The translations under genes were made by a program, and so were the position numbers. 12,311 nt of DNA from a virus. Its lineage: Duplodnaviria > Heunggongvirae > Uroviricota > Caudoviricetes. Below, one piece after another: positions 3,991 through 5,230 of the stretch. Below the pieces are notes generated by a model. The model saw only the letters and a list, made by a program, of their open reading frames with translations. It ran no database searches and had not been told where the DNA came from. Position 1 is the stretch's first letter, and each line of letters begins with the position of its first letter. The stretch covers positions 1-12,311 of IMG/VR virus record IMGVR_UViG_2563366990_000020; one strand, given 5' to 3'.

Positions 3991-4533
3991 TTACTCCAGC
4001 GCATCATTGACGGGTTTGAGGACCTTTTCTTCGAACCAGGTCATTTTCTCCGGTGTTTCGTCGGCCACGGTCCCGCCTTTTGCGCCGGGCGTCTGCGGCG
4101 TCTGTTTACGGCTGCTGCCGGGGGTGGCGCGTGCCTGGCGTTTTTCCGGTACGCTTCGTCTTTCGCGTAATGTGAAGCTGACCTGCCAGGCGAGGCGGTC
4201 GGTCTGCTGCTGTGCGTCTATCTGCCCGGAAAATGTCCCTTCACGAAAGTTAATGGCGGCAGCGGTGGCGTTTGCGATACGGTAAACTTTCAGGGCACCG
4301 TCCCCGGTGGTGGCAGAGGCCAGCTGGAAAATGCGCTGAAGGGCCCGCTCATTGTCAAAGGTGATCATCCCGGTTACGCGAAGCTCTTTGGCCTTGATGC
4401 CCTGCTCGGCGTTCGCGGTGCTCGATGTCTGGCCGGACTGGTCCTTTTCCTGGAACTGCATCGAGGGCGAAATCACCATGTTCTGCATGAAAATACCCTC
4501 ACCATCAAGGGCGAGCAGTGCGGTCTGGCTCAT
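3991..4533 (-). CDS. hypothetical protein in the tail operon, function unknown
   Basis: ATG at 4533 with upstream GGGGA; stop TAA at 3991-3993, 2 nt before the next gene start. Protein-like N-terminal about 120 aa followed by a basic, Pro/Thr/Lys/Arg-rich low-complexity tail (RERRSVPEKRQARATPGSSRKQTPQTPGAKGG). No family recognised. Confidence 0.65.
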   Translation of the reverse strand: MSQTALLALDGEGIFMQNMVISPSMQFQEKDQSGQTSSTANAEQGIKAKELRVTGMITFDNERALQRIFQLASATTGDGALKVYRIANATAAAINFREGTFSGQIDAQQQTDRLAWQVSFTLRERRSVPEKRQARATPGSSRKQTPQTPGAKGGTVADETPEKMTWFEEKVLKPVNDALE

Positions 4534-5230
4534 GGATCATTTTCCCCAGTTCAGTTAATGAGTCTGCCGCCAGGAGTGCGGCAACGGTATGTACGGCGGT
4601 CGGTGCCGGGATATCCTTCACCATGGCCGCCGCTGCGGCGCGGTGATACCCCCGGTACTGAAATACCCAGGCCTGCGCCTTCTGTTCTGCCAGTGTTCTG
4701 ATCCCCTCTTCCAGTCCGGCAAGTGCGCCAGCCCGTCTGCTGATAAAGCGGCTTATCTGGCGGCGAAGCCCTGCGGCATCCGGGCGTTGTGCTGCCAGCT
4801 GCCTGGCCTGTGCTGCACGGGCGGCACTGACTGCGCTGCGCATTGTGGCAACGGAAAGATGCACAGGTGCGGGCAGGGTGTCGGTGGTGATCGGGATTTG
4901 CATTTTGTCAGTGCTCAGACTGGCGGCAGCCTGTGCCATGCGCTGTGCCTGCGTGAATACCGGCACGGGCAGAACGGCGGTCAGTGCCGCCATTGACTGT
5001 ATAAAAAGATCGTGGGTGTTTTCGGCAATCATGATAATGGTCACGTCGCCGGATGCACGGCTTCCGGCCATTTTCCCGGCCAGCCAGTTTATGGCGTTCG
5101 GAGGGCTTAAATATACCCCCGATTCTTCATATCGTCCCAGCCCGTAAGTCCACGGTGTGACGGGGATGACGGAACAGCTCAGCGGGGGCATGTCAGCGCT
5201 GACGCTGATTGTTTTTCTTGTCCACGTCAT
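4505..5230 (-). CDS. hypothetical protein in the tail operon, function unknown
   Basis: ATG at 5230 with a strong GGAGG 5 nt upstream, 11 nt after the Tfa stop. Overlaps the next gene by 29 nt. Ala/Arg-rich C-terminal half. No family recognised. Confidence 0.65.
   Translation of the reverse strand: MTWTRKTISVSADMPPLSCSVIPVTPWTYGLGRYEESGVYLSPPNAINWLAGKMAGSRASGDVTIIMIAENTHDLFIQSMAALTAVLPVPVFTQAQRMAQAAASLSTDKMQIPITTDTLPAPVHLSVATMRSAVSAARAAQARQLAAQRPDAAGLRRQISRFISRRAGALAGLEEGIRTLAEQKAQAWVFQYRGYHRAAAAAMVKDIPAPTAVHTVAALLAADSLTELGKMIHEPDRTARP

Follow-up and report, generated by a model that had tools for sequence, protein, structure and literature searches.

Two neighbouring minus-strand genes in a 12,311-nucleotide (nt) stretch of viral DNA (IMG/VR record IMGVR_UViG_2563366990_000020, positions 1 to 12,311; here called the window) probably specify two parts of an HP1-type phage baseplate. 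They encode proteins of 180 and 241 amino acids (aa) and are referred to by their open reading frames (ORFs) as ORF-180 and ORF-241. ORF-180 is predicted to be the tube initiator, the functional equivalent of gpU in phage P2, and ORF-241 is probably an accessory baseplate protein; we would give this explanation, taken as a whole, a probability of about 0.6. Judged from its genes, the window carries part of an E. coli prophage of the HP1 type (Peduoviridae, HP1 subgroup), namely the distal half of its late tail operon. An earlier note on this DNA had located both ORFs correctly but had not been able to assign either to a family, and it had wavered between a structural role and an accessory insertion at a variable spot past the tail fibre genes. 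The two genes and the parts of their products are as follows.

4505-5230, minus strand: ORF-241, HP1 orf33 homologue, ATG start (phrog_1677)
4685-4849, minus strand: predicted long helical hairpin of ORF-241, aa 128-182, Ala/Arg-rich and basic (AlphaFold2 helices 128-146 and 152-182)
3991-4533, minus strand: ORF-180, HP1 orf34 homologue, ATG start (PF25759, phrog_1398)
4156-4533, minus strand: tail-tube-fold domain of ORF-180, aa 1-126 (AlphaFold2 model)
4045-4155, minus strand: disordered basic linker of ORF-180, aa 127-163 (predicted local distance difference test score, pLDDT, <50; 46% P+T+G+S; isoelectric point, pI, 10)
3994-4044, minus strand: C-terminal helix of ORF-180, aa 164-180 (helix predicted at 166-178; residue conservation)

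Both proteins belong to known families

ORF-180 is a full-length member of PF25759 (HP1_ORF34, 'Bacteriophage HP1 ORF34 baseplate complex protein'; E 5e-54, 183 bits against a cut-off of 27), its residues 7-179 aligning to profile positions 3-175 of 180, and it matches phrog_1398 at E 4e-66. ORF-241 falls into phrog_1677, the HP1 orf33 family (E 9e-59), and is scored at E 8e-73 by the hidden Markov model (HMM) of that family; Pfam holds no family for it, and NCBIfam none for either protein. Sequence searches of the PDB with both proteins and both family profiles gave no match. Because of these family matches and the hundreds of homologues that each protein has, both ORFs are real genes and not chance ORFs, and they are fresh members of known families in a known genomic context.

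The homologues of ORF-180 are all approximately 175 to 190 aa long. Its identity to the proteins of SI7, YenM_324, ESSI-2, HP1 and K139 is 76, 57, 54, 37 and 35%, respectively, and HP1 orf34 and ACA1 gp47 share its size and its slot between orf33 and the hub-spike gene. An orf34 homologue lies directly upstream of an orf35-type hub or hub-spike gene in 14 phage genomes, in the window and in the E. coli locus L007, and one is present in every phage examined, including those that have no orf33.

ORF-180 is predicted to initiate the tail tube

An AlphaFold2 model of ORF-180, built from 45 homologues, has a confident core (pLDDT ~90 across residues 50-125) with a tail-tube fold. Among solved structures it comes closest to tube initiators and ripcords (Pa193 gp38/gp39, Pam3 gp17, Mu gp43 and pyocin R2 PA0626). 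The structure matches, with their scores, are:

Pa193 ripcord-1, 8.5
Pam3 tube initiator, 8.3
Pa193 ripcord-2, 8.1
Milano centrepiece, 7.8
phiCD508 LysM protein, 7.6
Monocin FtbK, 7.6
Mu DNA-circularisation protein N, 7.3
Pyocin R2 ripcord PA0626, 7.3

ORF-180 is a second tube-fold gene of this prophage and abuts the hub-spike gene, the major tube gene (Phage_HP1_Orf24) being found next to the sheath gene. In P2, six copies of gpU sit on the gpD trimer and join it to the tube, with the C-terminal helix of gpU touching the wedge triplex, and in pyocin R2 the counterpart of gpU stabilises the state before contraction by means of a ripcord domain (bioRxiv 10.64898/2026.09.14.750843; PMC10996793). 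Since ORF-180 has a tail-tube fold, since the major tube protein is encoded elsewhere, and given the roles of P2 gpU and the R2 ripcord, ORF-180 is predicted to be the tube initiator of the HP1-type baseplate. In the tables of Hwang et al. (2023), the orf34 homologue of ACA1, gp47, appears as 'gpU?', marked as uncertain and with an 'uncertain' HHpred match only (PMC10612066, Tables S1 and S2), and the modelled fold strengthens that tentative assignment. Nothing beyond PMC10612066 was found in the literature on HP1 orf33/orf34, the 'structural protein' label in YenM_324, or virion proteomes, and a sequence search found no HP1-type baseplate in the PDB.

The basic Pro/Thr-rich stretch that the earlier note had described as the tail of the 180-aa protein does exist, at residues 127-163, but it is not the protein's end. 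It is a low-complexity linker whose sequence and length differ among homologues, and it is followed by 17 final residues (MTWFEEKVLKPVNDALE; aa 164-180, TWFEEKVLKPVNDALE) that form an acidic, conserved predicted helix. W166, F167, E168, V171, L172 and P174 are invariant among 45 enterobacterial homologues. The helix is also present in the homologues from phiO18P, PfPro, phi3 and PV94; this well-conserved WFE helix of the enterobacterial branch is weak in HP1 and missing from K139 and ACA2, and nothing essential otherwise sets ORF-180 apart from HP1 orf34.

Six copies of ORF-180 would form a ring on the hub trimer, and this ring would seed polymerisation of the tube as gpU does in P2. The terminal helix may serve as a tethered contact element, held by the disordered linker of approximately 40 residues to a contact on the gpJ/gpI wedge. 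The likeness to P2 gpU and pyocin R2 PA0626 is one of fold and presumed function; no sequence similarity to either was detectable. The gene for ORF-180 lies past the fibre genes, whereas genes of the gpU/PA0626 type lie past the tape-measure gene, and the extension of ORF-180 consists of a disordered linker plus one short helix, whereas PA0626 (285 aa) carries a larger helical ripcord domain.

ORF-241 is a divergent member of the HP1 orf33 family

ORF-241 aligns end to end with HP1 orf33, K139 orf37, SI7 gp22, YenM_324 gp33, ESSI-2 gp05 and PfPro gp37, and its exact sequence occurs in E. coli entries. Homology to HP1 orf33, K139 orf37 and ACA1 gp46 is full-length, with a conserved YLSPxNA motif and a gene that overlaps the downstream orf34. 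A search of 1.84 billion representative proteins with the orf33 profile returned 252 clusters. Among the best 150 of these 252, the lengths range from 69 to 323 aa; the full-length proteins (approximately 215 to 320 aa) are either short, at ~235 aa, or long, at ~295 aa, and no length in this set would suffice for a fusion to a larger protein. ORF-241 is of the short form (~240 aa); the proteins of K139, PfPro, phiO18P and phi3 carry an extra ~40-70 aa at the N-terminus. The family is restricted to HP1-type phages and is stand-alone. A 262-aa Haemophilus influenzae protein (P0192) in which the first 71 residues of orf33 are joined through 'EECCK' to a complete orf34 was considered as a natural two-domain fusion and set aside, being a deletion variant in a prophage.

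As the earlier note had observed, the C-terminal half of ORF-241 is rich in Ala and Arg (36%), and this rises to 43% in residues 125-185, where the pI is 12. This basic hairpin is specific to the GC-rich lineage of ORF-241, and DNA binding by it was ruled out, since neither the HP1 nor the K139 homologue keeps the charge. ORF-241 showed no known fold and no signature of an enzyme, of a defence protein or of a transmembrane segment, and in Pfam it lacks the Caudo_TAP domain that its neighbour at 5242-5838 has.

The gene overlaps its downstream neighbour. The spacings reported earlier proved exact: an 11-nt gap from the stop of the tail fibre assembly gene, tfa (5242), to the start of ORF-241 (5230), an overlap of 29 nt between ORF-241 and ORF-180 (4505-4533), and a gap of 2 nt from the ORF-180 stop (3991) to the start of the 557-aa hub-spike gene (3988). 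Likewise, Shine-Dalgarno-like sites precede the starts of ORF-241, ORF-180 and the hub-spike gene (CCGGAGGCACC-ATG, GGGGAAAATGATCC-ATG and GCTGGAGTAACC-ATG, respectively), and no sigma-70-like promoter site was found from tfa to the hub-spike gene. The orf33/orf34 overlap is conserved (29 nt in the window, SI7 and ESSI-2, 35 in YenM_324, 14 in HP1 and 13 in K139), while the tfa/orf33 junction varies from +32 to -11 nt. A programmed frameshift between ORF-241 and ORF-180 was also considered and dropped, as the two frames are related by +1 and the overlap, at 13 to 35 nt in the phages compared, is of no conserved length.

The orf33 HMM finds matches directly upstream of an orf34 homologue in 10 phages or prophages, including phiO18P, ACA2 (gp46) and phi3. 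In phi3 (L010, KT887559) the gene, at ~4081-4995, is not annotated in the record (HMM E 6e-68 with a broadened profile), and neither is a gpD-like gene between orf34 and the gp5-domain gene. The order tfa-orf33-orf34-orf35 is found in HP1, K139, SI7, YenM_324, ESSI-2, phiO18P, PfPro and phi3, and in ACA2 without tfa. The earlier note had proposed to look for the pair in phages with the same flanking genes, and there the two genes part company: orf34 was in all those examined, but orf33 was missing from PV94 and C5a and, in the fibre-to-end part examined, from yong1 and SMHB1, HP1-subgroup phages of four different genera in which the orf34 homologue comes directly after the fibre or tfa gene. 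On gene content, then, orf34 is universal among the phages examined, and orf33 is widespread yet dispensable. No clean correlate of orf33 presence emerged when tfa, split versus fused hub-spike genes and the C-terminal helix of ORF-180 were compared: PV94 has the helix without orf33, K139 has orf33 without the helix, and SMHB1 has an apparent tfa without orf33.

The role of ORF-241

The conserved position of ORF-241, its translational coupling and the two spectra of its ACA1 homologue weakly suggest a structural role. In purified ACA1 virions, gp46 ('HP1 orf33') gave two spectra with 6% coverage and a ratio of spectral counts to molecular weight (SC/MW) of 0.09, similar to those of gpW, gpJ and gpV (PMC10612066). 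We consider it an even bet, and the likeliest reading, that ORF-241 is translated along with the tube initiator, is thus made in step with it, and enters the baseplate in low copy number as an accessory that links hub/initiator and wedges or stabilises their junction. The structural reading of the earlier note is therefore borne out strongly for ORF-180, by the tube fold and PF25759, and weakly for ORF-241.

A comparable niche in P2 would be that of the LysM glue protein gpX, which HP1-type phages appear to lack. By the assignments of Hwang et al., the HP1-type module has equivalents of W, J, I, H, G and U and a D+V fusion, that is, all the P2 baseplate parts except gpX, with orf33 as an extra, and no gpX or LysM protein is listed for ACA1 (PMC10612066). 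The annotation of the E. coli prophage shows no LysM or gpX gene in its late region, nor did Pfam detect one among ten late-region proteins scanned, and this region has almost no unassigned space. A phmmer search of the prophage ORFs with P2 X, U, D, V, W, J and I was too insensitive (gpJ itself was missed) and was not used as evidence for the absence of gpX. With P2 gpX, pyocin PA0627 and T4 gp53, ORF-241 may share only a niche, that of a small to mid-sized protein whose gene lies near those of the initiator and hub. It has neither the sequence nor the fold of a LysM glue protein, is ~3.6 times the size of gpX and is absent from some HP1-type phages, and hhalign gave no signal between the orf33 family alignment and the single P2 gpX sequence. 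A narrower version, which we would bet against, makes ORF-241 a baseplate part whose fold is new among solved contractile injection systems and which either replaces the LysM glue or adds a further, lineage-specific lock that holds the tube initiator/hub to the wedges.

Several results weigh against the explanation of the two genes as tube initiator and accessory baseplate protein. ORF-180 has no match to PF06995 (Phage_P2_GpU) at a Pfam E value of 0.1 or below, and hhalign of the orf34 family alignment against the single P2 gpU sequence gave a probability of 0.2, so ORF-180, gpU-like in its predicted function, is not placeable in the gpU family. ACA1 gp47 went undetected by virion mass spectrometry, in which other low-copy baseplate proteins gave just one or two spectra (PMC10612066). 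The C-terminal helix is absent from the homologues of K139, ACA2, C5a, yong1 and SMHB1 and is therefore not essential to the function of the orf34 family. For ORF-241, the virion evidence amounts to two spectra, from an ACA1 homologue that matches the orf33 HMM at E 7e-7. Its AlphaFold2 model is of moderate confidence (pLDDT 78; predicted template modelling score, pTM, 0.66) and resembles no solved baseplate component among the PDB structures; Foldseek of this model against BFVD likewise returned nothing at E <= 0.001. ORF-241 is the most divergent baseplate gene compared (47, 44, 38, 28 and 27% identity to SI7, YenM_324, ESSI-2, HP1 and K139, respectively), and in its divergence it resembles the genes for tape measure, fibre and tfa rather than the hub genes. 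Finally, no member of the orf33 family occurs in PV94 (Vibrio) or C5a (Pseudoalteromonas), searched over the complete genome, or in yong1 or SMHB1, searched over the region from fibre to end, which argues against an indispensable architectural role. The profile and structure searches that the earlier note had proposed thus gave a family and the tube fold for ORF-180, and a family with no structural relative for ORF-241.

Alternative explanations

The strongest competitor, to which we give about one chance in four, is that ORF-241 acts in morphogenesis without being part of the virion, for instance by chaperoning or scaffolding the hub/tube-initiator complex or the attachment of fibres, and is released before or after assembly. 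The marginal detection of ACA1 gp46 would fit such a factor, as would the place of orf33 behind tfa, a known chaperone gene, which it follows after 11 nt or overlaps by 11 nt, its quick divergence, its dispensability in four genera and the lack of a solved baseplate component with its fold. However, gp46 was seen in purified virions at the level of low-copy baseplate proteins, while the scaffold and other non-structural candidates were undetected, and the tight orf33/orf34 overlap suggests stoichiometric co-production of ORF-241 with the tube initiator.

That ORF-241 belongs to the fibre or host-recognition module, as a fibre-baseplate adaptor or a host-range accessory, and not to the hub, is unlikely. 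The gene does come directly after the fibre and tfa genes, its divergence tracks fibre, tfa and tape measure and not the equivalents of W, J, I, orf34 and orf35, and three of the four orf33-less phages also lack tfa and have different long fibres. In ACA2, however, the fibre module has been swapped for an antireceptor with a diversity-generating retroelement, and there is no tfa, yet orf33 stays beside orf34 and the gpD/gpV genes. Conversely, SMHB1 has an apparent tfa, judged by position and sequence with no profile test, but no orf33, and it is the orf33/orf34 overlap that is conserved and not the junction with tfa.

Far less credible is the accessory insertion proposed in the earlier note, in which the pair would be a moron, a defence cassette or a lysogenic-conversion cassette. 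In P2-like phages the sites past the tail fibre genes often vary, with P2 fun(Z) after gene G as an example. However, both genes keep their synteny in at least nine genera and are translationally coupled within a late operon that shows no promoter-like site between them and their neighbours, their GC content matches that of the neighbouring tail genes, ORF-180 has a tail-tube fold, and the PADLOC models gave no match to either protein at E <= 0.01; synteny, coupling and the lack of a PADLOC match effectively exclude this idea. Clear homology to tail proteins together with conserved synteny, named in the earlier note as what would overturn its view, was found for ORF-180, and for ORF-241 the synteny part only.

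The homologues of ORF-180 in the GenBank records of PV94, SMHB1, YenM_324, PY3, phi3, ValB1MD-2 and yong1 carry misleading labels ('adenine glycosylase', 'nucleoid DNA-binding protein', 'DNA-binding protein' or 'tail-collar fiber protein'), which look like propagated misannotation. An identity as a DNA-acting protein, for which the 'adenine glycosylase' and 'nucleoid DNA-binding protein' labels (all the above records except yong1) and the basic linker might be cited, has next to no chance of being right, as the tail-tube fold effectively excludes it, Pfam, NCBIfam and the PDB show no glycosylase or histone-like similarity, and the linker is low-complexity and unconserved.

The surrounding operon and other features of the window

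The tail module is an unbroken minus-strand run of nine genes, from the 728-aa gene down to the 557-aa gene, and Pfam and PHROG gave assignments for all nine. Besides ORF-241 and ORF-180, it comprises:

9977-12163, minus strand: tape measure protein, 728 aa (Pfam/PHROG)
9630-10001, minus strand: DUF2590, sheath initiator, 123 aa (Pfam/PHROG)
8468-9652, minus strand: gpJ-like protein (Baseplate_J), 394 aa (Pfam/PHROG)
7927-8475, minus strand: gpI-like protein (Tail_P2_I), 182 aa (Pfam/PHROG)
5838-7904, minus strand: tail fibre, 688 aa (Pfam/PHROG)
5242-5838, minus strand: tfa, tail fibre assembly (HP1 orf32 / P2 gpG equivalent), 198 aa (Caudo_TAP E 1e-37; phrog_105 E 5e-86)
2315-3988, minus strand: 557-aa HP1 orf35 homologue, fused hub (gpD-like N-terminus) and spike (gpV/VgrG-like OB, beta-helix) (phrog_2258)
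2282-2300, minus strand: terminator-like hairpin, 8-bp stem followed by a T-run, 15 nt past the hub-spike stop codon

The gene order equals HP1 orf27-orf35, gene for gene, and is identical in YenM_324, SI7, K139, ESSI-2 and PfPro. The hub-spike protein matches phrog_2258 'baseplate protein' at E 2e-241. Its N-terminus (aa 25-128) has a weak match to phrog_196 'baseplate hub' (E 2e-5), and matches to Pfam Phage_base_V (aa 310-345, E 0.0025) and to TIGR01646 VgrG (E 0.0012) fall under the curated cut-offs. The D+V fusion in HP1 is given in PMC10612066 (Table S1); in PfPro, phi3, ACA2, PV94 and SMHB1 the hub and spike are encoded by two separate genes. With the hairpin at 2282-2300 the late tail operon ends, and in K139 a terminator is annotated at the matching place.

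Between a BRCT gene and the tail operon, the window also holds a 46-aa ORF for a Hok/Gef-type toxin (1310-1450, minus strand), and in the E. coli locus L007 a unit of ~720 bp around such an ORF is present twice. No hok/sok RNA was found, as a scan of the whole window against Rfam returned no family. The E. coli prophages fall into only two discrete types, so that a comparison of them for recombination boundaries was uninformative.

Implications

The tube-initiator call for orf34 confirms and sharpens the published tentative assignment, and the orf34 family, now 'hypothetical', 'baseplate complex protein' or mislabelled in databases, can be labelled tube initiator (gpU-like). The gain lies chiefly in annotation and concerns tailocin engineers and those who study the structure of phage tails. 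With it, the inventory of the HP1-type baseplate is nearly complete, comprising the sheath initiator, gpJ, gpI, the fibre, the tube initiator and the fused hub-spike; the sole part of the module lacking an assigned function is orf33, and the sole P2 part missing is the LysM glue protein. The role of orf33 can be put to the test, since some relatives naturally lack the gene and the structure of an HP1-type baseplate is still to be solved: PV94 and C5a, along with yong1 and SMHB1, amount to natural knockouts for orf33 function. If orf33 does act as a glue or lock, these phages would have a baseplate simpler than that of P2, which is now described as minimal.

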